A DNA stretch of 64,000 nucleotides from positions 757,850 through 821,849 of the forward strand of contig DYIU01000001.1 of the NCBI GenBank assembly GCA_020723485.1. The letters run 5' to 3'. Shown one piece after another: positions 7,891 to 64,000 of this stretch. Each line of letters opens with the position of its first letter. Position 1 is the first letter of the stretch. The stretch is from Acidimicrobium ferrooxidans. GTDB lineage: Bacteria > Actinomycetota > Geothermincolia > Fen-727 > Anoxymicrobiaceae. The position numbers and the translations under genes are program-made. The notes under the pieces are model-generated. The model saw only the letters and a program-made list of their open reading frames with translations. It made no database searches and was not told the origin of the DNA.

Positions 7891-8019
7891 CCCCCGGTTT
7901 AGGCGCGTTTCAGGTCGCGCGGCATTTCGCCGATGAAAATCAAGGGTGGTCAAACCGCTGCTCCCGTTTACTGTGCCGGCACCAGCCCGATTGCGGCTGC
8001 AGGACCTGAGGGGTATTCG

Positions 8020-11000
8020 ATGGATGTCTTCGCTCGTCACAAGATGCTTTTTGTCGTTCCAGTGATAGCCGCAGCCGTCTGTATTGTGCTTACGGCAACC
8101 GGGCTGATAGTCCCGCCGGTGACAAAGGCGGCCGACCTCAACCAGGGCGACGTCGCCCGACTCCTCCAGAAGACCTGGTACATGGCGGAAGGCTACACCG
8201 GCGGCTCGTTCCAGACCTGGGTCGCGGTGCAGAACCCGGGGGCCCAAAAGGCCAACGTCTCGATGGAGTTCCAGGTGCCCGCGGGACGTCCGGCCCCCGC
8301 CCCTTACGCGTTCGAGCTGCCTGCGAAGACCAGGAAGAGCGTCAGGCTCGACGACATACCGGGACTCGAGAACACCGAGGTGTCCACCAGGGTCAGCGCC
8401 GACGTGAATATCTATGCCCAGCGCTCGATGTACTTCGACGAGAACGGCAGGCAGGGCGGAAGCAGCACCATGGCGGCGGCCATACCCGACTTCGAGTGGT
8501 ACCTCGCGGAGGGCTACACCGGCGGCACGTTCGAGACTTTCGTCTGCATCCAGAATCCCGGACCTGACACCTGCAAGGTAACGATGAGCTTCAACCTGCT
8601 GGCCGGCGGCGCCGCCGACCCGTACGCCTTTGACCTGCCCGGCCGCACCCGGCGGACGGTCAAGCTCGATGACCTGCCGGGGCTCATGGGCACGGACGTC
8701 TCCACCAGGGTCTCCGCCACCCAGCCCGTGGTGGTGGAGAGGGCGATGTACTACGACTATTTCGGGAAAGACGGCGGGGACTGCTCGCTCGGCCAGACCA
8801 GCACCGATACGGAATGGTACATCCCCGAGGGTTACACGGGCGATTCCTTCGACACGTACGTGCTGGTGCAGAACCCGGGAACCGAGGAGGCCGCCGTAAG
8901 GCTCAACTTCCAGCTCTCCGGAGGGGAGGACGGTGAAACGCGCGCGTTCAAGATGGCGCCGGGAACGCGCCGGACGGTGAAGCTCGACGAACTCCCCGGG
9001 TTGGACTCCGCCGAGGTCGCGACGGTCATATCCTCGGATAAGCCCGTTGTCGCGGAGCGGGCGATGTACTTCGACCGCGCCGGAAGCGACGACGGCCATT
9101 CCTCGCCGGCCAGCGATTCCATAAGCGACGTGTGGCAGGTCCCGGAGGGATGTACGAGCGACGGCTTCGAGACCTACTTGAGCGTGCAGAACCCCGGCGA
9201 CTCCCAAGTCGAGGTGACGCTCGAGTTCCAGCCGGCGCCTGGTTACGAGATAGAACCCTACAAGTTCGAGGTTCAGGCGGACGGGCGCGAGAGCGTGTCC
9301 CTCAACCGGATTGACGGTTTCCCCGAGACGGACGTCTCGACGACCGTGCGGGCCACCGCTCCCGTGATAGTCGAGTCCTCGATGTACTACGACCGAGTGG
9401 GAATGAACGGCGGACACAGTTGCCTGGGGGTCATCCCCAACACCCTGATGCCGAACGGGGTCATGCTGGACCAGGCGAGCGAGGCGCTCGTGACCTCGGC
9501 CCCGGACGGCCAGGTCGTTTTCAGCTCTTCCAACGACCTCATCGACTCCATCGAGGTGGACGACGTGGTCTGCGGCATGCCCTGTGAGGGCGCGCCGAGC
9601 GGGTTCATGAGGAAGGTGAAGGAGGTCCAGCACGCGGGCAGCGTGGTGACGCTCATCACCGAGCAGGCGGCCCTCCAGGAGTTCGTCAGGTACGGTTTCT
9701 TCTACGGCACCCACGACCCGGCCGGGGGCGCCCGGCAGGGCGGCTTCGACGTCACGGTCCCGTTCAACGTCGACCTTTCCTCTTACGGGAACATAAAGGG
9801 CGAGGTCTCCGTCGGCGTCAGCGTCGACATCTCGATACACATCAAGTGGAAGGGCTGGTGGATATTCAAGGTACCCGTCGGGTTCACGTTCAGGATGGCG
9901 GCGGGGTTCCAGCAGTCGGCGAACTTCACACTGACCGCCGGGGACAACTTCACGCTCGACAAAGAGGTGAAGATCAAGACGTTCTACCTGTCTCCGATAG
10001 ACGCGGGGCCGCTGGTGTTCTTCCCGAGGGTGAGCATCTACGTGGGCTTCACCGGCAACTTAGCCAGGGGAACGGTCTTGTCGTGCGGTGAATCCCTGTC
10101 CGCGCAGGCGGGCTTCGGGTACGACGACGGCTGGTACACCATATCCAACTTCGACCCGGGTGCCTCGGCGGACGCGAGCCTGCCGTACGCCTCCATGGAC
10201 GCCAAGCCCTACATCAGGGAGGCGCTCGAGTGTCTGCTCTACGACATCGTGGGGCCGTACATCGACGTGATGCAGTACATCAGGCTCCACTCGGACCCGG
10301 CCGCCGACCCGTGGTGGGTGGTGTACGCCGGTGTGCAGGCCGACGGCGGGATAGACATAGACCTGCTCATCTGGACCCTGAAGTGGCACGGGAAGATATA
10401 CGGGTACGAATGGCAGATCAAGAGCGCCCCCCCGAAGCCGAAGATTACCGGGATAAACCCCAACCCGAGCGCGACCGGGACGCAGGTGACGCTGAGCGGT
10501 TCGAGCTTCGGGGGCGCCAAGAGCCCGAGCTGGTACGTGACGTTCGGGGGGACACGTGCGTCCGAATACGGGCCCTGGTCCGACGGTTCAATAACGTGTA
10601 CGGTGCCGGGCGGCCTGTCCGGCCGGGTGACGGTGCAGGTGTTCAATGACGGAGGGTTATCAGCGGGGGCGGATTTCGGAGTGCAGCCCCACATAGGCGG
10701 CGTCTCGCCGCCATCCGGTAAAACCGGCTCCAACGTGACGGTCACCGGCACGTCCTTCGGCGCCTCGCGAGGCAGCTCGTACGTCTGCTTCAACGGGGTC
10801 GGCTCCCCGGGGTACTCCAGCTGGTCGGACTCCAGCGTGACCTGCGAGGTCCCTGCCGGCATCTCGGGCGTGGCGAACGTCACAGTGACAACCTCCGGCG
10901 GGGAGTCCAACTGGTTCCAGTTCAACGTGATACCCGACCTCGATGCTGTCACCCCTGCTTCCGGAACGATAGGGAGCGAGGTCAAGCTGACGGGCAATGC

Positions 11001-13977
11001 CTTCGGGGCGACTCGGGGCGGCTCTTACGTGACGTTCGGCGGGGTACAGGCGACCCAGTACACCGGCTGGGCGGACGGCGAGATACGCTGCCTGGTGCCC
11101 GCCGGAGTGTCGGGGACGGTCGACGTGACGGTGACAACGCCGGGAGGCACTTCGAACGCGGTCAAGTTCGGCGTGGCCCCGCACATCGACGGGCTCTCGC
11201 CCGGGTCCGGGACCGTCAACACCACCGTTACCATCGTCGGCAGCGGGTTCGGCCCGGCGCAGGGTGACTCCTACGTCAAGTTCGACGGAGTGAAGGCCGT
11301 GGCGTATGCATCCTGGTCTGACGGTCAGGTGGTCTGCAACGTGCCGTTCGGGGCATGGGGGATAACAAACGTCACCCTGGTCACCGGCGGAGGCACCTCC
11401 AACGGGCAGCGGTTCGTTGTGGTGCCGCACCTGGACATCATGGACCCGCAGTCGGGGATCGTAGGCAGCACCGTTACGCTGACCGGCAGCGCATTCGGGC
11501 CGACCAGGGGAAGCTCATACGTGATGTTCGGCGACACAAAGGTGACCACCTACACCAGTTGGAACGACGTCAAGATAGTCTGCAAGGTGCCCCTCGGGGC
11601 GGCCGGGCCGGTCCAGGTCGGCGTAACGACTGAAGGAGGTGCCTCCAACACGATGGGCTTCAGCGTCGTTCCCGACGTGGACGACGTGGACCCGAACGCC
11701 GGGGTCGTCGGCTCGCAGGTGACGCTGACCGGCACCGGTTTCGGCGGCTCCAGGGGGGACTCCTCCGTGACGTTCGGCAGCGTCCCGGTTACCGACTACG
11801 ACAGCTGGACCGACACGAAGGTGGTCTGCCACGTCCCGGTCGGCGCTTCGGGGAACGTGCCAGTGGTCCTGACGACCGCCGGCGGCTCTTCCGCGCCGCT
11901 CTACTTCAACGTCATACCACGTGTCGACGGGGTCGACCCGGGGTCGGGAGTGGTCGGGACCGCGGTCACGATGGCCGGCGCCGGCTTCGGTGACACCCAG
12001 GGCGACTCATTCGTGGCGTTCGGCGGGGTGAAGGTGGTGGACTACCAGTCCTGGGCGGACAACCAGGTAGTGTGCCTGGTCCCGCTGGGGGCGCACGGGG
12101 ACACAAGCCTGACGGTCACGACCGGGGGCGGCACCTCCGCCGGAGCCGACTTCAAGGTGATACCGAAGATAGACGGCATCGACCCGGCGGCAAGCCAGGC
12201 CGGGACCCAGGTCACGATAAGCGGCAGCGCGTTCGGCGACGACCAGGGGACCTCGTTCGTCACGTTCGGCCCGTTCACCGTCACGGACTACGTGTCATGG
12301 TCCGATACGCAGGTCGTCATCGAAGTCCCGAACGACGCGTTCGGGCAGGTGCAGGTCAGCCTGACCACGGACGGCGGCGAGTCGAACCAGGTCGGCTTCA
12401 ACGTGCTCCCCTACATCAACGACGTCCTGCCGCCCTCCGGAGGCATGAGCACCACGGTGAGCGTGGAAGGAAGCGGCTTCGGCACCTCCAGGGGGGACTC
12501 GATGGTCCTGTTCGGCACCACCGAGGCGGCCAGGTACACCTCCTGGTCCGACAGGGTCATAAAGTGCGTCGTCCCCGTAGGGCCGACCGCCGGGACCGTC
12601 CGGGTGGTGACCTCGGGAGGCACGAGCAACGGCGAGGACTTCACAGTATTCACGCCGACCTGGTACCTGTCAGAAGGAACGTGCGCCTGGGGTTTCAGCA
12701 CTTACATAACGATAATGAACCCCAACCCCGAGGCGCTTACCGCTTCGGTCACGTACATGATCCCCGAGGGCGCGGGCAAGGCCGGCGGCGGGGTCCCGCC
12801 GATGAAGGTGGACCTCCCGCCGAACAGCCAGACCACGATAAACCCGATGGACTACCTGAAGTTCGAGACCGACTTTTCCACGCGCGTGGATTGTCTTGAG
12901 GGGAAGATGATCGCCGTCGACAGGACGATGCAGTGGACCGGCGCGGGAGCCCCATCGTTCGAGAAGCAGTGCTCGGTAGGGACGGTGGCACCGGCCACCC
13001 ACTGGATGCTGCCCGAGGGCTCGGCGCTCTGGGGCTTCGAGACGTGGCTCACCCTGCAGAACCCGGGTGACGCACAGGCGAACTGCGAGGTCACCTACAT
13101 GATTGAGGGCGGCGAGCCCCGCAAGGTGACGCACAAGCTCGCGCCGAGGTCGCGGACGACATACGGACTGGTCGAGGAGGTCGGCCGGGTGGACGCCTCC
13201 GTCGAGGTAGACTCCGACCTGCCCGTCATCGCCGAGGGGGTCATATACAGGAACTCCCGCCGCGAGGGCAGCTCCTCTGTCGGCACCACGCTCCCGGCCC
13301 ACGGCTATTACGTCGCCGTGAAGGGCAGGGGCCTCTCGCACGACCAGTTCCTGGCGGAGGGCACCACCAGGGAAGGGTTCACCACCTTCCTGGAGCTGCA
13401 GAACCCCAACGCCGAGGCCGGCTGGGTCCGTGTCCAGTACATGACCGAGGACGGCGTCGTGACCCAGCCGGAGTTCACCATGCCGCCCATGTCACGCAAG
13501 ACGATCAGGGTGAACGACGTGCTCCCCGGCAGGGATTTCGGGATACACGTGCACGGCCAGCACCCGGTCGCCGCGCAGAGGACCATGTACTGGGGCGCCG
13601 GGACGCCGGCGGGCGAGGCGACGCACGGGACCATCGCGATGACCGACCTGCACAACGCGTTCTACTTCCCCGACGGGCAGACCTCCAACGGGTGCGAGAC
13701 GTACACCGTCCTCCAGAACCCGAACAAGGGAGCGGTCTGGGTGGAGGTCAGCTACCTCTCCGCCGAAGGCGATGTGCTGTCCCGGTTCAAGGTGGAAGTG
13801 CCGCCGGGCTCGCGGCGCACTCTCAACATGGCGGACAAGGTCAAGGACCGCAGGGCCTCGGTGCTCGCGCGCGTCGTCTGGAGCGAGCAGCGCATCATGG
13901 CCGAGCGTGTCATGTACTGGAACAACCGCGGCGCCGGAGCGTGCTCCATCGGAGGTTTCGAGGACAGCCTCCCGTAG
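8020..13977 (+). CDS. Giant secreted repeat protein (~1985 aa): 4 type-A repeat modules, a unique middle region, 9 tandem IPT/TIG domains, 4 type-B repeat modules
   Basis: ATG at 8020 preceded by GAGGGG, giving a signal-peptide-like N-terminus (MDVFARHKMLFVVPVIAAAVCIVLTATG); the ORF is open from 7933. Type-A modules begin WY[ML][AP]EGYTGGxFxTxVxxQNPG and end ERAMY[YF]D; nine 82-aa repeats match the IPT/TIG pattern (P.I.G..P..G..G..VT..G..FG...G.S.V.FG........W.D..I.C.VP.G..G.V.V.V.T.GG.SN); type-B modules begin W[YM]L.EG[TS]..WGF.T[WY][IL]...NP. Confidence 0.8.
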   Translation: MDVFARHKMLFVVPVIAAAVCIVLTATGLIVPPVTKAADLNQGDVARLLQKTWYMAEGYTGGSFQTWVAVQNPGAQKANVSMEFQVPAGRPAPAPYAFELPAKTRKSVRLDDIPGLENTEVSTRVSADVNIYAQRSMYFDENGRQGGSSTMAAAIPDFEWYLAEGYTGGTFETFVCIQNPGPDTCKVTMSFNLLAGGAADPYAFDLPGRTRRTVKLDDLPGLMGTDVSTRVSATQPVVVERAMYYDYFGKDGGDCSLGQTSTDTEWYIPEGYTGDSFDTYVLVQNPGTEEAAVRLNFQLSGGEDGETRAFKMAPGTRRTVKLDELPGLDSAEVATVISSDKPVVAERAMYFDRAGSDDGHSSPASDSISDVWQVPEGCTSDGFETYLSVQNPGDSQVEVTLEFQPAPGYEIEPYKFEVQADGRESVSLNRIDGFPETDVSTTVRATAPVIVESSMYYDRVGMNGGHSCLGVIPNTLMPNGVMLDQASEALVTSAPDGQVVFSSSNDLIDSIEVDDVVCGMPCEGAPSGFMRKVKEVQHAGSVVTLITEQAALQEFVRYGFFYGTHDPAGGARQGGFDVTVPFNVDLSSYGNIKGEVSVGVSVDISIHIKWKGWWIFKVPVGFTFRMAAGFQQSANFTLTAGDNFTLDKEVKIKTFYLSPIDAGPLVFFPRVSIYVGFTGNLARGTVLSCGESLSAQAGFGYDDGWYTISNFDPGASADASLPYASMDAKPYIREALECLLYDIVGPYIDVMQYIRLHSDPAADPWWVVYAGVQADGGIDIDLLIWTLKWHGKIYGYEWQIKSAPPKPKITGINPNPSATGTQVTLSGSSFGGAKSPSWYVTFGGTRASEYGPWSDGSITCTVPGGLSGRVTVQVFNDGGLSAGADFGVQPHIGGVSPPSGKTGSNVTVTGTSFGASRGSSYVCFNGVGSPGYSSWSDSSVTCEVPAGISGVANVTVTTSGGESNWFQFNVIPDLDAVTPASGTIGSEVKLTGNAFGATRGGSYVTFGGVQATQYTGWADGEIRCLVPAGVSGTVDVTVTTPGGTSNAVKFGVAPHIDGLSPGSGTVNTTVTIVGSGFGPAQGDSYVKFDGVKAVAYASWSDGQVVCNVPFGAWGITNVTLVTGGGTSNGQRFVVVPHLDIMDPQSGIVGSTVTLTGSAFGPTRGSSYVMFGDTKVTTYTSWNDVKIVCKVPLGAAGPVQVGVTTEGGASNTMGFSVVPDVDDVDPNAGVVGSQVTLTGTGFGGSRGDSSVTFGSVPVTDYDSWTDTKVVCHVPVGASGNVPVVLTTAGGSSAPLYFNVIPRVDGVDPGSGVVGTAVTMAGAGFGDTQGDSFVAFGGVKVVDYQSWADNQVVCLVPLGAHGDTSLTVTTGGGTSAGADFKVIPKIDGIDPAASQAGTQVTISGSAFGDDQGTSFVTFGPFTVTDYVSWSDTQVVIEVPNDAFGQVQVSLTTDGGESNQVGFNVLPYINDVLPPSGGMSTTVSVEGSGFGTSRGDSMVLFGTTEAARYTSWSDRVIKCVVPVGPTAGTVRVVTSGGTSNGEDFTVFTPTWYLSEGTCAWGFSTYITIMNPNPEALTASVTYMIPEGAGKAGGGVPPMKVDLPPNSQTTINPMDYLKFETDFSTRVDCLEGKMIAVDRTMQWTGAGAPSFEKQCSVGTVAPATHWMLPEGSALWGFETWLTLQNPGDAQANCEVTYMIEGGEPRKVTHKLAPRSRTTYGLVEEVGRVDASVEVDSDLPVIAEGVIYRNSRREGSSSVGTTLPAHGYYVAVKGRGLSHDQFLAEGTTREGFTTFLELQNPNAEAGWVRVQYMTEDGVVTQPEFTMPPMSRKTIRVNDVLPGRDFGIHVHGQHPVAAQRTMYWGAGTPAGEATHGTIAMTDLHNAFYFPDGQTSNGCETYTVLQNPNKGAVWVEVSYLSAEGDVLSRFKVEVPPGSRRTLNMADKVKDRRASVLARVVWSEQRIMAERVMYWNNRGAGACSIGGFEDSLP

Positions 13978-44986: not shown

Positions 44987-45008
44987 GGGGTCAGGTCACT
45001 TTGTTGCG
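44987..45008. repeat. Solo 22-bp arm of the GGGGTCAGGTCA element family
   Basis: GGGGTCAGGTCACTTTGTTGCG, 11 bp after the ACAD stop; no partner arm within 100 bp. Confidence 0.7.
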
Positions 45009-45047
45009 TTTCCTGGACAGGATCGAAAGGACGGGCGGGAGGACACA

Positions 45048-48457: not shown

Positions 48458-51211
48458 CTAGTCGGTTCCGCTCACCCCGAGTGACGCGTGCGCAGCCTGC
48501 CGGTACGTCCCGTCCGCGCCGTGCCAGTACATCGCTCTCTCGGCTATTACCGGCGCATCGGAGGTTACCAGGGTGGAGACGCTCCACTCACCGGGCAGCG
48601 TGTCGGCCACGCTGAGGGTCTGCCTGCCTCCCGGCTCGAGGGGCGGCAGAGGCGGGCCGGGCACACTCCCCTCGAGCGTCATGTACGTTATCAGCGGGTT
48701 GGCAACTTCGGTCCCGGCGTTGAAGATTGTGATCCAGGTCTCGAAAGAGCCGAAGGTGCCCGAGCCCGTTGAACCTTCGGCGAAGCACCACTCCACCGCA
48801 CCGGCCGTGGCGCCGATCGACCCGTGCGCCGCCTGCCGGTAGGTCCCGTCAGAACTGTGCCAGTACACTGAGCGCTCCGCGACTATCGGTACGTCTGATG
48901 CCACATGCGTGGAGAAGCTCCACTCACCGGCAATGCCGACGTTGTACGTCTGCCTCGTACCCGGCTCCAGCGGGGGAACTATGTGCCGGGTCGCGGATTC
49001 AATGTTGACGTTTGCCGTCTCGGTCCCCGGGTTCTGAACGGTGATCCAGGTCTCGAACGAGCCGTGGCCGTCCGAGCCCGCGGAGCCCTCCGCGAAGTAC
49101 CAATCCGTCGCCCCGGCTGTGACCCCGATGGAATCGTGCGCCGCCTGCCGGTAAGCCCCGCCGGAACCGTGCCAGTAAACCGCCCTCTCCGCGACGATCG
49201 GTACGGTGGAGCTGACCCGGGTTGAGACGCTCCATTCGCCGGGAACCGTGTCCCCAACGCTGAACGTCTGCCTGGTCCCGGGCTCCAGAGGCGGCACGGC
49301 CGGTCCCGCTACCTCGCCCTCCGGAGTCATGTAAGTCATCACCGGGAGGGCGGTTACGGCTCCCGGATTCTGCAGTGTGATCCAGGTCTCGAACGAGCCA
49401 CGCGAGTCAGAGCCGGTGGAGCCTTCAGCGAAGTACCAGTCGGACGCACCCGCGTTGACCCCGATGGAATCGTGAGCCGCCTCGCGGTAGCCGCCGTCAG
49501 CGCCGTGCCAGTACTGCGCCCTTTCGGCAGCTATCGGCACGTCCGAGGTGACATGGGTGGACACGCTCCACTCATCCGGGACCGTGTCACCCACCGAGTA
49601 CGTTTGCCTGGTCCCCGGCTCCAGGGGCGGGACGGGCGGTCCGGCCACCTCGCCGCCCGGCGTCATGTAGGTGATCACCGCCTGCGCCGACTGGTTCCCC
49701 GGGTTCTGAAGGACAATCCATGTCTCGAAAGACCCACGGGCGTCAGCGCCGGTGGAGCCCTCGGCGAAGTACCAGTTCTGTGCCGTATCCGGGAGCTCGG
49801 GGTTGTTTACGACCGTCTGTGTATCGCTCGCGGTCTTGTAGTAACCGGTCTGCTCGTCCTTTATCTCGGCGATGTTTATCAATAGGACGTCCCCGAAACG
49901 CGGGAACTGGTCCTGCGCCTTGAGGGTCAGCCTGTAGCTGAACTCGCTGGTGGCCGAACCGCCCTCGAGCCGCCCGACCTGCCATCGGACCTTCCCGCCG
50001 TCGATTACGCTCCCCCCGTCCGTGATGCCGGTCACGCTCTCCACGAGGCTCTCGTCGTAGTCGTCCATGACCGCTACCTGGTTCGCGGCGGTCTGGCCGC
50101 GGTTCTCGAAGCTCACGGTGTACTCCAGGGTGTCCCCGGGCGAGATGAGCCCGTCGCCGTCGCGGTCGACGGCCAGCCGCCCGCTTTTCTCGATATTGAA
50201 GTCGACCATCGCGGCGAACCAGAACCAGTCGAAGTAGAAATCGGCGTAATACCCGTCGTCGTCCGTGTTGACGAGGTCGACCGAGTACCTGGCTGTGTCC
50301 GTGGCGACGTGCCCGGCCAGAGGGTAGGTCCTGTCGTCCCAGCTGTTCCCGTCCGTATCCTCGCAGACGTCGTCCTGGTGGAAGTCCGGAGCGTTGCGGT
50401 TGCCCCACTCGTCATAGGAGCGGAAGTCGTAGGACATTGTGTCCGGGGCGTGGCCTTCGGATGTCAGGATGCCCTTGTAGGCGGAGGGGAGTGTCGGCCT
50501 GGTGGTGAAGTCCATGGCGGAACAACTCGCCTGGTGATGCGAGTCCATGATGTTACAGCCGTCGGCGATGCACACCTCGCCCATGGTGATCGACTGGTGA
50601 GTGAAGACTATTACGAGGCTTGCCCCCCACCACGCCTTCAGGGGAAGGAGGCTGAGCGGCCCGGTCTCGACGTGGTACATCCGGTTGGGCTCGTCCCCGA
50701 TGAGGTCGGTGACCTCCGCGCGGTACAGGCGGCGGTGGTTGACGCCGTTCATCATCTCGTAGCCGACCTGGTCGACGTCGCCCCCCTCGTCCCTCCAGCC
50801 GGTCAGGGGCGTGCCCTCGAACGTTATCTCGCCGGACCCGGCCGGCGCCTGGTCCCTTCCCGGTATGGAACGCCCGTCGGTCCCGAAGTTCCCTCCCCAG
50901 TAGAGGAAGGCTCTCTTTATCTCAGCACCTTCCGGCACATGGTTTATCGTGGCGTTACCGGGGGACATGTCGATGTACATCTGGCTCCTGTCCGGGGCCT
51001 CGTGCATCCCGATACCCTCGGAAGTTATCCCCACGTTACCGGCAGCCCTGAGGAAGACGGTGGTGGAGCCGTCCTTACCGACCGACCAGTCAATGGTCTC
51101 GTCGTATGACAGGGCCGACTTGTCCGCCGCAGCCGCCGGCCCGTACGCGCCGATGATGAGACAGGCCAGTATGAAAACCGCCGGCAGGACGATAAGGCGT
51201 CTTCTCAACAT
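48458..51211 (-). CDS. Secreted repeat protein (917 aa), paralogue of the giant protein: unique N-terminal half plus 4 type-A repeat modules
   Basis: ATG at 51211 with AAAGGA RBS; signal peptide (MLRRRLIVLPAVFILACLIIGAYGPAAAA); C-terminal half holds four ~110-aa modules beginning [WC][YF]FAEGS.G....GSFETWI.[VLI].N.G and ending AER[AS].YWH. Confidence 0.8.
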   Translation of the reverse strand: MLRRRLIVLPAVFILACLIIGAYGPAAAADKSALSYDETIDWSVGKDGSTTVFLRAAGNVGITSEGIGMHEAPDRSQMYIDMSPGNATINHVPEGAEIKRAFLYWGGNFGTDGRSIPGRDQAPAGSGEITFEGTPLTGWRDEGGDVDQVGYEMMNGVNHRRLYRAEVTDLIGDEPNRMYHVETGPLSLLPLKAWWGASLVIVFTHQSITMGEVCIADGCNIMDSHHQASCSAMDFTTRPTLPSAYKGILTSEGHAPDTMSYDFRSYDEWGNRNAPDFHQDDVCEDTDGNSWDDRTYPLAGHVATDTARYSVDLVNTDDDGYYADFYFDWFWFAAMVDFNIEKSGRLAVDRDGDGLISPGDTLEYTVSFENRGQTAANQVAVMDDYDESLVESVTGITDGGSVIDGGKVRWQVGRLEGGSATSEFSYRLTLKAQDQFPRFGDVLLINIAEIKDEQTGYYKTASDTQTVVNNPELPDTAQNWYFAEGSTGADARGSFETWIVLQNPGNQSAQAVITYMTPGGEVAGPPVPPLEPGTRQTYSVGDTVPDEWSVSTHVTSDVPIAAERAQYWHGADGGYREAAHDSIGVNAGASDWYFAEGSTGSDSRGSFETWITLQNPGAVTALPVMTYMTPEGEVAGPAVPPLEPGTRQTFSVGDTVPGEWSVSTRVSSTVPIVAERAVYWHGSGGAYRQAAHDSIGVTAGATDWYFAEGSAGSDGHGSFETWITVQNPGTETANVNIESATRHIVPPLEPGTRQTYNVGIAGEWSFSTHVASDVPIVAERSVYWHSSDGTYRQAAHGSIGATAGAVEWCFAEGSTGSGTFGSFETWITIFNAGTEVANPLITYMTLEGSVPGPPLPPLEPGGRQTLSVADTLPGEWSVSTLVTSDAPVIAERAMYWHGADGTYRQAAHASLGVSGTD

Positions 51212-59584: not shown

Positions 59585-59606
59585 GGGGTCAGGTCATTTT
59601 GTTGCG
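59585..59606. repeat. Solo 22-bp arm of the GGGGTCAGGTCA element family
   Basis: GGGGTCAGGTCATTTTGTTGCG, 15 bp after the stop of the second TPP-enzyme gene. Confidence 0.7.
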
Positions 59607-59686
59607 TTTTCAACTGGCAGGGGGGTGGAAGCGGGCCTTCGTAGGGCGTAATCTGTATCCCACAGCAGCAGATCGAGGAGGTCTTC

Positions 59687-60247: not shown

Positions 60248-60326
60248 GGGGTCAGGTCACTTTGTTGCATTTTCACGTGTTCGATCCAGTGAAGTGCAGT
60301 AAAACGCAACAAAGTGACCTGACCCC
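60248..60326. repeat. Full palindromic element of the GGGGTCAGGTCA family (22-bp arms, 35-nt loop) between convergent genes
   Basis: Arms GGGGTCAGGTCACTTTGTTGCA (60248-60269) and CGCAACAAAGTGACCTGACCCC (60305-60326); starts 10 bp after the membrane-protein stop and ends 10 bp before the stop of the minus-strand aldo/keto reductase gene. Confidence 0.8.
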
Positions 60327-61961: not shown

Positions 61962-63359
61962 CTAGTCGTCCCAGGCGCCGATGGTCTCCTCCCCCGAGGT
62001 GCGGGCGGAAAGAGACCCCGCCTCGGTCCATATGTAAGTGGCGCGCTCGCAGATTATGTTCTGTCCGGGGGTGAGGCTCCTCACCCTGATCGCATACCTG
62101 CCCGGCGTGGTCATGGTGTCCGCCAGGTTGTAGGTGGCTCGCGTGTTGGCAAGGACAGTCCTGTTGATGGTCGCGTCCGGAAGCACGCCCTCACCGTAGT
62201 ACTTCATCTCGATGTTGACGTCCACCGGATTTGGATTCTGCACGCAGGTCCAGGTCTCGTACAGCAGTCCGCAGTTGCCTCCGGGGAGGTACCAGTAGGC
62301 GTGAGACCCGTCAACCCCTATGGAGTCGTGGCCCACCTCGCGCCAGATGCTTCCGGAGCCCCAGTACATCGGTCGCTCGGCGAGGAGCGGGAGGGTGCCC
62401 GACACCTTGATGGACAGGTCGGTGTTGGGCGCCTGCTCGTTGACCTTGATGGTCTCGCGTGTCTGGGGGGCCATCGGGAATGGAGCCATTACGATCTGGC
62501 CGCTCGGCTTCATGTAGGTGATGGTCACCTGGTTCACAGCCGCGTTGGGATTCTGGATGCACAGGAATGTCGTGAACCCCCAGGCCGTCGTTCCCTCGGC
62601 GAGGAAGAAGTCGTTGGCCGGGGTAGTGGCGCCGACCGACTCGTGACCCATCCTGCGGGAGTCCCTGTACATGGACCTTTCGCAGATTATCGGCTGGTTT
62701 CCCAGCACCTGGATGGAGGCGTCCGCCGAGCCTATGTCGTTCGTCATGTTGTAGGACGCGCGAGAATTAGAGGGGACCGTCTTGTTGACGGCGAACGGCC
62801 CGAAACCCTCGATCATGTAAGTGATGATGATGTCTGTAGCTGCCACGTTCGGGTTCTGCACCGTTAGCCAGGTCTCGAAGCCCCATGCGCTGGAGCCCTC
62901 CGGGAGATACCAGATGTTGTTCGGGGCGGTGACGCCTACAGATGAGTGGGTCTCCAGGTTCTGCTCCACTTCGGAGCCCGGCCCACCCATCCAGAACATA
63001 GTCCGATCGACGGCAATAGTCCTGGTCGGGTCGAGGCACTCCACCAGGGTGCTGAAATCCCGCTGGCCAACTGCAGTCAGGGGATTTACGGTCACTCGGC
63101 TCTCGGAAGGCATCGTGAACGGGGGCTGGACGAGCGGGCCCAGGTCCGCGGTCATGTAGGTTATGCGGATCTGGACGTCAACGGTGTTCGGGTTCTCTAT
63201 GTTGATGTAGGTGCCGAAGCCCCAGGCGGTAGTGCCTTCTGCGAGGTACCAGGTCGGGAGCGGGCCCGCCACGGCCGCCCCTCCGCCGAGGAGCATTAGC
63301 GATGCCGCGCCGGCGCACATCATAAGGGCTACCAGAATCGAGATCATCTTCCGTGCCAT
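61962..63359 (-). CDS. Secreted repeat protein (~465 aa) made of signal peptide plus 4 type-B repeat modules
   Basis: ATG at 63359 (MARKMISILVALMMCAGAASLMLLGGGAAVAG); the upstream part of the ORF (to 63470) is translated palindromic element; four ~110-aa modules beginning WYL[AP]EG[TS].AWGF.T[YW][IL]...NPN. Confidence 0.75.
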   Translation of the reverse strand: MARKMISILVALMMCAGAASLMLLGGGAAVAGPLPTWYLAEGTTAWGFGTYINIENPNTVDVQIRITYMTADLGPLVQPPFTMPSESRVTVNPLTAVGQRDFSTLVECLDPTRTIAVDRTMFWMGGPGSEVEQNLETHSSVGVTAPNNIWYLPEGSSAWGFETWLTVQNPNVAATDIIITYMIEGFGPFAVNKTVPSNSRASYNMTNDIGSADASIQVLGNQPIICERSMYRDSRRMGHESVGATTPANDFFLAEGTTAWGFTTFLCIQNPNAAVNQVTITYMKPSGQIVMAPFPMAPQTRETIKVNEQAPNTDLSIKVSGTLPLLAERPMYWGSGSIWREVGHDSIGVDGSHAYWYLPGGNCGLLYETWTCVQNPNPVDVNIEMKYYGEGVLPDATINRTVLANTRATYNLADTMTTPGRYAIRVRSLTPGQNIICERATYIWTEAGSLSARTSGEETIGAWDD

Positions 63360-63440
63360 CACACCCACCTCCGTAAGGTTGCCTGCTTCAAGAGTACTCC
63401 TGCGGGCAATGACGGTCGAGAGCGCAGTTCCCTTACATGC

Positions 63441-63529
63441 GCACAATGGGGTCAGGTCATTTTGTTGCATTCAAGGAGTCTGGGATGAGTATGGTCAAAA
63501 TGCAACAAAATGACCTGACCCCATTGTGC
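63441..63529. repeat. Full palindromic element of the GGGGTCAGGTCA family with extended arms (~28 bp, 31-nt loop)
   Basis: Core arms GGGGTCAGGTCATTTTGTTGCA (63448-63469) and TGCAACAAAATGACCTGACCCC (63501-63522); the palindrome extends outward to GCACAATGGGG...CCCCATTGTGC; lies between two minus-strand genes. Confidence 0.8.
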
Positions 63530-63533
63530 ACCG

Positions 63534-63995
63534 CTACTCTTCGTCCCACCAGAACGGCGGCTTGGAGCAGTCGAAATAGGGCTCGCCGCTGCGCTTGATG
63601 ATGTAGACCGGCATACCTACGAAGCACTGCTCGAACAGCGCCTCGACGTCAGCCATGCGCATGCGGATGCAGCCGTGGGAGACGGAGTAACCGATGGAGC
63701 CCGTGTCGCTGGTCCCGTGGATGAGCACGCCGCCCCCGTTGATGTGCATCGCCCTCGTGCCGAGAGGGTTGTTGGGGCCGGGAGGTATCATGTCCGGCAT
63801 GTTCTCCATCCAGGTCGACCCGCGGTTGTACCAGGTGGGGTTCTTCTCCATCCTGACTATCTTCCACTGGCCGATGACCGTGGGGTACTTGGCCGAGCCG
63901 ACTGCGACCGGGTACTTTGCCAGGAGCTTGTCGCGGTCGTAGAGCGAGATGGTATGCGCCTCCTGGTTCACCAGAAGCAGCTTGCCGACGGTCAC
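63534..63995 (-). CDS. L,D-transpeptidase (YkuD domain), probably truncated at the window edge
   Basis: Catalytic motif HGTSDTGSIGYSVSHGCIRM; no signal peptide within the window, so the N-terminus likely lies beyond position 64000. Confidence 0.7.
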   Translation of the reverse strand: MTVGKLLLVNQEAHTISLYDRDKLLAKYPVAVGSAKYPTVIGQWKIVRMEKNPTWYNRGSTWMENMPDMIPPGPNNPLGTRAMHINGGGVLIHGTSDTGSIGYSVSHGCIRMRMADVEALFEQCFVGMPVYIIKRSGEPYFDCSKPPFWWDEE

Positions 63996-64000
63996 CTCTT

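Follow-up and report, generated by a model that had tools for sequence, protein, structure and literature searches.

In our study, a gene near the end of a 64,000-nucleotide stretch of Acidimicrobium ferrooxidans DNA (GenBank assembly GCA_020723485.1, contig DYIU01000001.1, positions 757,850 to 821,849 of the forward strand; hereafter the window) was found to encode an exported protein of 465 amino acids, composed of a signal peptide and a tetrad of tandem modules. The fold of the modules is already known: they are ASRAH domains, the non-enzymatic beta-sandwich domains of the TM1070/ASRT fold. We propose, with a probability of roughly 0.55, that the four compact ASRAH domains act as a non-catalytic multivalent lectin binding a sugar of the cell's own wall, either the glycan strands of peptidoglycan or a wall-attached polymer. 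An earlier note on this DNA had described the product as a signal peptide and four type-B modules only, and this was borne out by the 465-amino-acid open reading frame (ORF), the hidden Markov model (HMM) of the module and the orthologues. The features of the gene are as follows.

61962..63359, minus strand: coding sequence of the stand-alone ASRAH-tetrad protein, 465 amino acids (ORF, translation, Shine-Dalgarno sequence, N-termini of orthologues, and the ratio of nonsynonymous to synonymous substitution rates, dN/dS)
63366..63372, minus strand: Shine-Dalgarno sequence GGAGGTG, 6 nucleotides upstream of the ATG at 63359 (sequence reading)
63267..63359, minus strand: Sec-type signal peptide, residues 1-31, MARK, hydrophobic core and AVA/GP, the slash marking the cleavage site (pattern common to the stand-alone orthologues)
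62922..63260, minus strand: ASRAH module 1 (HMM envelope; invariant W37, E41, G42 and N56)
62619..62927, minus strand: ASRAH module 2 (HMM envelope; invariant W150, G155, N169 and P170; aligned to TM1070)
62304..62624, minus strand: ASRAH module 3, source of the Pfam DUF5719 match (HMM envelope; invariant E255, G256, N270 and P271)
61965..62303, minus strand: ASRAH module 4, reaching the C-terminus, …ETIGAWDD (HMM envelope; conserved IG[GA][YFW]xD-COOH in relatives)

An AlphaFold2 (AF2) model of the tetrad protein, built from an alignment of 50 sequences (A1), reached a predicted local distance difference test (pLDDT) value of 94 and a predicted template modelling score (pTM) of 0.89. A Foldseek search with this model gave a probability of 1.00 for TM1070 and ASRT only, and the eight-stranded beta-sandwich was superposable on both. 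Structure prediction, suggested as a check in the earlier note, thus placed the module, which was taken there for an unknown, in a known fold that is non-enzymatic and has a predicted ligand-binding role (PMC2739507). The same note had named a known enzyme fold as the outcome that would speak against it; the fold is known yet non-enzymatic.

TM1070 and ASRT define the ASRAH superfamily, which is recognised by a Trp that opens strand 1 and a nearly absolute Asn that ends strand 2 (De Souza, Iyer & Aravind 2009, PMC2739507). In the 50 aligned sequences W37 and W150 were invariant, and modules 3 and 4 contained an aromatic residue (F/Y/W) at the same position. N56, N169, N270 and N375 were also invariant, and the equivalent Asn was invariant in 56 modules of three types. 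Further invariant residues include E41, E255 and H344, ER pairs at 227-228, 328-329 and 438-439, and the GFxT[WY] residues of strand 2. The WFFPDG start of TM1070 resembles WYLPEG. All the features of the superfamily that can be tested on the 465-amino-acid protein were present in it, and it is a member of the superfamily. A single-module profile made from the 56 modules (A2) ranked TM1070 (1nc7, E 0.0019) and ASRT (2ii7, E 0.0026) first among 177,635 sequences of the Protein Data Bank (PDB); at the level of the profile, the relationship can be called borderline but specific. The Pfam family DUF5719 (PF18986) matched the protein with 29.5 bits against a gathering score of 26.2 (E 5.5e-7), and the match covered residues 245-320 and positions 47-126 of the 319 in the profile, which is about 80 of 319 positions. 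The Pfam family ASRT (PF07100) matched with E 0.006 and 17 bits (cut-off 25), on only the first type-A module of a giant protein of 2014 amino acids encoded in the same window. Pfam scans of the separate modules gave sub-threshold matches only (DUF5719, ASRT, CARDB and a phage FNIII-like domain), and an NCBIfam scan of the 465-amino-acid protein gave no match.

The tetrad was found to be the inherited unit. Modules at the same position were 53-66% identical across 50 proteins, whereas those at different positions were 28-40% identical; therefore, the four positions are distinct lineages that are inherited as one block. Exactly four modules were present in 368 of the 379 collected relatives and eight modules in two of them. 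In nearly all type-B relatives the tetrad extended to the very end of the protein, where IGG[YF]xD-COOH is conserved. Extracellular ASRAH domains are found in dyads or tetrads, and TM1070 is a homotetramer in which the pocket walls are partly built by the subunit interface (PMC2739507); ASRT is also a tetramer (PMC8660804). From the pTM of 0.89, the linkers of about 5 residues that join the modules in the AF2 model and the homotetramers of TM1070 and ASRT, we infer a fixed and compact arrangement, in which the four modules would pack as an intramolecular pseudo-tetramer.

The stop codon of the tetrad gene occupies 61962-61964. The minus-strand ORF (61962..63470) has 502 amino acids when counted from its first ATG, and 465 amino acids when counted from an internal ATG at 63359. 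The ATG at 63359 is the true start, because the Shine-Dalgarno sequence lies 6 nucleotides upstream of it, the orthologues of 461-465 amino acids start at the equivalent Met, and the upstream ATG at 63470 falls within one arm of a palindromic repeat hairpin. The public gene call (P0001) begins at this ATG in the hairpin arm; its 502-residue start was rejected, and translation almost certainly does not include the 37 extra residues (63360-63470, minus strand). A sigma-70-like promoter was looked for near the tetrad gene and not found. The dN/dS against orthologues was 0.2-0.4, so the stand-alone gene is functional and under purifying selection.

The signal peptide has a K/R n-region and a hydrophobic core before its AVA/GP, and an AxA stands directly before module 1 in every stand-alone orthologue; N-terminal signal peptides were found in all relatives checked. 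In the AF2 model the signal region forms a helix (residues 2-23) of lower pLDDT. A reading as a lipoprotein was rejected, since Cys15 inside the signal is missing from the orthologues P0005 and P0006 and a lipobox is therefore unlikely. After the signal peptide the module HMM found exactly four modules and no other domain; the mature product has about 434 amino acids (residues 32-465), and module 1 begins about 5 residues past the cleavage site. Module 4 contains LPGG where LPDG is usual. Many members of the stand-alone clade share this LPGG in place of the conserved LPDG in module 4, together with a clade-specific tail …IWTEAGSLSARTSGEETIGAWDD. It may be that the fourth pocket is altered or no longer active.

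The window holds four tetrads across three proteins. Besides the tetrad of the stand-alone protein, the following were found.

12652..13965, plus strand: paralogous type-B tetrad, C-terminus of the 2014-amino-acid protein (HMM, alignment)
8167..9438, plus strand: type-A ASRAH tetrad, N-terminus of the 2014-amino-acid protein after its signal peptide (HMM; Pfam ASRT E 0.006)
48464..49789, minus strand: third kind of ASRAH tetrad, C-terminus of a 917-amino-acid protein (HMM, alignment)

The giant protein (7933..13977, plus strand) carries its type-A tetrad at residues about 80-500 and its type-B tetrad at about 1575-2010, with a region of about 330 amino acids without a family match and nine IPT/TIG domains between them. 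Should the tetrads serve as anchors, the giant would either be held at its two ends or link two ligands. The 917-amino-acid protein (48458..51211, minus strand) begins with a region of about 340 amino acids without a family match, which is followed by a DUF11/CARDB-like domain and the tetrad. Its tetrad is of a third sequence type (WYFAEGSTG…SFETWI.LQNPG) with nearly identical internal repeats, and the 465-amino-acid protein also aligns with these four C-terminal modules.

The earlier note had equated the stand-alone protein with the C-terminal four-module block of the giant protein, and the two were found to be collinear (residues 1539-2011 of the giant, 38.7% identity over 486 columns, 297 bits). 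It had also described one and the same pattern in both proteins. The four motifs of that pattern (WYLAEGTTAWGFGTYINIENPN, WYLPEGSSAWGFETWLTVQNPN, FFLAEGTTAWGFTTFLCIQNPN and WYLPGGNCGLLYETWTCVQNPN) occur in the 465-amino-acid protein and the motif family recurs in the giant, but the strings of the giant differ (WYLSEGTCAWGFSTYITIMNPN and others). The stand-alone protein shared 47-52% identity with tetrads from many unrelated proteins, and as much as 80% with its orthologues. Because its identity to the block of the giant is 39%, the stand-alone protein is, as judged from these alignments, an old paralogue and not a recent excision of the C-terminus of the giant.

An exhaustive search with the profile covered 1.84 billion representatives, clustered at 50% identity; it yielded 7,590 clusters of the tetrad family with E <=1e-3, of which 3,382 had E <=1e-30. 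Nearly all of the top 150 clusters were proteins of 500-2,100 amino acids with a C-terminal tetrad, and the named sources were metagenome-assembled genomes (MAGs) of Actinomycetota, class Candidatus Geothermincolia / family Anoxymicrobiaceae. Within this very large family of C-terminal cassettes, stand-alone proteins make up a minority; orthologues of the same length and architecture were found in at least 9 other assemblies at 48-80% identity. The passengers of type-B tetrads were IPT/TIG domains, propellers (YNCE/NHL, RCC1, Vgb-lyase and BNR/Ycf48), a C39-like peptidase, a CE4 polysaccharide deacetylase, ice-binding-like domains and barrels like those of glycoside hydrolases (GH). For the type-A tetrads, the 120 best homologues (P0260-P0379) of residues 75-505 of the giant (8155-9447, plus strand) were counted. 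Among these, fusions to YkuD (42), CAP/YkwD-like (30), SpoIID (12), Amidase_3 (9) and M28 (3) domains were found, and the type-A tetrad of the relatives was likewise mostly C-terminal. On the basis of these fusion partners, ASRAH tetrads are an appendage of peptidoglycan-remodelling enzymes in the Geothermincolia-type lineage. An architecture that seems to be common and undescribed is that of an L,D-transpeptidase bearing an ASRAH tetrad at its C-terminus.

A gene for a YkuD L,D-transpeptidase lies upstream of the tetrad gene (63534..64000, minus strand; Pfam YkuD E 3.9e-26); the earlier note had named an L,D-transpeptidase gene as a neighbour. Its 3' part is present and the gene runs off the end of the window, and the GTG listed as the start of its ORF is an artefact of the window boundary. 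The orthologues of this gene encode 380-409 amino acids with an N-terminal membrane or signal segment followed by PG_binding_4 and YkuD domains. The loci are given below with the identity of the stand-alone protein.

Window, 100% identity: PG_binding_4+YkuD gene directly upstream, same strand
L013, 80% identity: PG_binding_4+YkuD gene directly upstream, with a beta-lactamase-family gene before the YkuD gene
L002 (Candidatus Geothermincolia MAG), 70% identity: PG_binding_4+YkuD gene directly upstream; locus syntenic with the window
L007/L008, 66% identity: PG_binding_4+YkuD gene directly upstream, with SpoIID before the YkuD gene
L012, 62% identity: PG_binding_4+YkuD gene 2.1 kb downstream
L009, L014, L015 and L010, 48-57% identity: YkuD gene absent

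The comparison of neighbourhoods proposed in the earlier note thus gave an adjacent YkuD gene at 66-80% identity, one 2.1 kb away at 62%, and none at 57% or below; the linkage of YkuD to the stand-alone gene is real but lineage-limited. The cell-wall context hinted at there is strengthened by the retention of this neighbour at 62% identity or above and by the fusion of sister tetrads to YkuD, SpoIID and amidase domains. The neighbours of the tetrad gene in the window were YkuD, a small membrane protein, an aldo/keto reductase and DUF6790, and the orthologous loci further contained SpoIID, DUF169 and TetR. In a distant lineage (48-50% identity), two stand-alone tetrad genes were found in tandem, 90 nucleotides apart (L010 6001-8913 and L011 1490-4402), with no YkuD gene near the pair.

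According to the mechanism that we propose, the protein would be exported via Sec and its signal peptide cleaved at AVA/GP. The four-domain lectin would then bind the sugar moiety of peptidoglycan or of a wall polymer multivalently and would thereby be retained at the wall. The ligand, a small molecule or a sugar, is predicted to sit in a cleft lined by strand 2 (PMC2739507). In fusion proteins, the C-terminal tetrad would target a passenger to the wall or retain it there. The passenger-less protein may be co-expressed in its own lineage with the neighbouring L,D-transpeptidase and SpoIID-like gene, and it is a matter of speculation that it may occupy or organise wall sites alongside that transpeptidase. 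A wider proposal, put forward tentatively, is that the fixed-order ASRAH tetrad is a general, non-covalent system of wall anchoring and targeting in Geothermincolia-type Actinomycetota, which would serve the surface-display proteins of type B and the wall-remodelling enzymes of type A (L,D-transpeptidases, SpoIID and amidases), with the stand-alone protein as its minimal form.

Several points weigh against a wall-binding lectin. Sugar binding by ASRAH domains, the extracellular ones included, is so far a prediction, made in 2009 from context (PMC2739507), and ASRT, the sole member studied experimentally, was reported to bind double-stranded DNA and ASR in the cytoplasm (PMC8660804). The fusions to peptidoglycan enzymes involve type-A tetrads, whereas type-B passengers are mostly TIG and beta-propeller domains, and such passengers alone do not point to peptidoglycan. 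The YkuD synteny, which does not extend to the four stand-alone loci of 57% identity or below, may for that reason reflect recent common ancestry and not functional coupling. Module 4 of the stand-alone clade has lost a conserved acidic residue (LPGG instead of LPDG), and the compact packing is a prediction drawn from the pTM of 0.89 and the short linkers.

Other explanations of the tetrad were weighed against the lectin. It is unlikely that the tetrad is a carbohydrate-binding module (CBM) for external polysaccharides, used in nutrient acquisition like the CBMs of glycoside hydrolases, in which case the stand-alone protein would be secreted to bind or scavenge polysaccharides. The tetrads remain 47-52% identical despite their very different passengers and keep many invariant polar residues, which suggests one common ligand and not diverse substrates; moreover, the commonest partners of the sister tetrads (YkuD, SpoIID and Amidase_3) act on the cell's own peptidoglycan, and the gene has wall enzymes and no sugar-uptake genes as neighbours. 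We give an equally low weight to a protein-protein module, either the unit of an S-layer-like self-assembling lattice or a dock on a proteinaceous scaffold, of which the stand-alone protein would be a subunit. Such a module would agree with the oligomerisation of ASRAH proteins (the TM1070 and ASRT tetramers), the strictly terminal and very abundant cassette, the tandem pairs of stand-alone genes (L010/L011) and the tetrads at both ends of the giant. The partner or scaffold is hypothetical, though, and the peptidoglycan-enzyme fusions are more simply explained by targeting to the substrate or the wall; four fused domains would also satisfy the tetramer interface internally, if they pack as the pTM suggests.

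The strictly C-terminal position and the conserved end IGG[YF]xD-COOH are also what would be expected of a secretion or sorting signal, analogous to the C-terminal domain of the type IX secretion system (T9SS) and removed after export, with the stand-alone gene as a by-product. This is very improbable, for about 430 amino acids would be very large for a sorting tag, Sec signal peptides are already present, and N-terminal tetrads exist too, as in the giant; furthermore, passenger-less orthologues are kept under purifying selection, so that the tetrad must be functional by itself. The least probable explanation, a fragmentary pseudogene or a recently duplicated, truncated copy of the C-terminus of the giant, would account for the collinearity with that block, but it is effectively refuted by the identity of only 39% to the block, the gene's own Shine-Dalgarno sequence, ATG and signal peptide, the orthologues of the same length and architecture in at least 9 assemblies (48-80% identity) and the dN/dS of 0.2-0.4. 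The earlier note had regarded a pseudogene fragment as the finding that would overturn it, and these results show otherwise.

The lectin that we favour differs from the known ASRAH proteins in several ways. TM1070 (PDB 1NC7) and ASRT (PDB 2II7) are single-domain, cytoplasmic proteins, whereas the 465-amino-acid protein is exported, and its four domains differ from one another and follow a fixed order; the pocket residues SHEshChhN of the former (with His and Cys) are replaced by GF[ET]T[WY]…QNPN. The amidase-linked tetrads of Chloroflexi ("family 2", PMC2739507) are likewise secreted with four tandem ASRAH domains. They were described as always fused to an N-acetylmuramoyl-L-alanine amidase and as occurring mainly in photosynthetic Chloroflexi, and were interpreted as peptidoglycan binding (PMC2739507). 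The protein described here has no catalytic domain, Amidase_3 fusions were found among its type-A relatives only, and in Geothermincolia-type Actinomycetota the tetrad serves generally as a C-terminal cassette, for dozens of kinds of passenger. In our reading, Pfam DUF5719 (PF18986) corresponds to the actinobacterial lipoprotein with two ASRAH domains, "family 3" of PMC2739507. Our protein passes the gathering score of that family and shares its phylum and domain type. It differs in having four modules without N- or C-terminal extensions, so that it ends with the last strand of module 4, in having an AxA site instead of a conserved lipobox Cys, and in lacking a WhiB, glycosyltransferase or inactive-zincin neighbourhood at its locus. 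In the literature searched, DUF5719 was not mentioned and the name ASRAH was found only in the 2009 paper (PMC2739507); neither a stand-alone secreted tetrad nor the general use of the tetrad as a C-terminal cassette in Geothermincolia was described there.

The likeness of the tetrad to the SLH and CWB2 triplets is a functional analogy only: both are terminal repeats of fixed number that are combined with many surface passengers. In Firmicutes, the SLH and CWB2 repeats occur in tandem triplets, each a putative compact and pseudo-oligomeric unit at a protein terminus, with many passengers and also almost alone. The triplets are made of three helical or Rossmann-like repeats and the tetrad of four beta-sandwich domains; Pfam and NCBIfam scans found no SLH or CWB2 in the 465-amino-acid protein, the fold of which is ASRAH. 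By this analogy, and considering its fusion partners and synteny, the tetrad would bind a wall polymer and retain passengers on the surface as SLH and CWB2 do. If so, it would define the means by which surface proteins are attached and peptidoglycan enzymes are positioned in an uncultured, deep-branching class of Actinomycetota. A role would then be gained for thousands of proteins annotated as "hypothetical" or "DUF5719", along with the first experimental handle on an extracellular ASRAH ligand, which has been a prediction since 2009. The mature protein of 434 amino acids, with no passenger and a high-confidence model, is a practical construct for binding assays and crystallography, in line with the earlier note.

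A repeat element was found beside the gene.

63441..63529, no strand assigned: 32-bp perfect hairpin between the YkuD gene and the tetrad gene, formed by two inverted copies of a genome-specific repeat, GGGGTCAGGTCATTTTGTTGCAT (sequence and folding)
44987-45009, 59585-59607, 60248-60326 and 63441-63529, in the window: copies of the repeat (at most 3 mismatches)

The hairpin at 63441-63529 has a folding energy (dG) of -57 kcal/mol and a z of -12. The repeat, GGGGTCAGGTCAYTTTGTTGCRT, was found in six copies in the window at this threshold against 0 expected, and all of them appear to be intergenic with respect to the predicted genes. Two of the copies occur as single arms that precede gene starts, and the remaining four are arranged as two inverted pairs, the loops of which (about 30 nucleotides) are unrelated. 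The motif was not found in the loci of 10 relatives, and the gap between the YkuD and tetrad genes is much shorter in the orthologous loci (about 45-85 nucleotides). Rfam contained no family for the intergenic hairpin and gave only sub-threshold matches to miRNA hairpins. Possible identities of the repeat are a REP-like element, a terminator and an operator. The location of the upstream ATG in the arm of the repeat hairpin explains the odd "MQQNDLTP" peptides that were present in several spurious ORFs.

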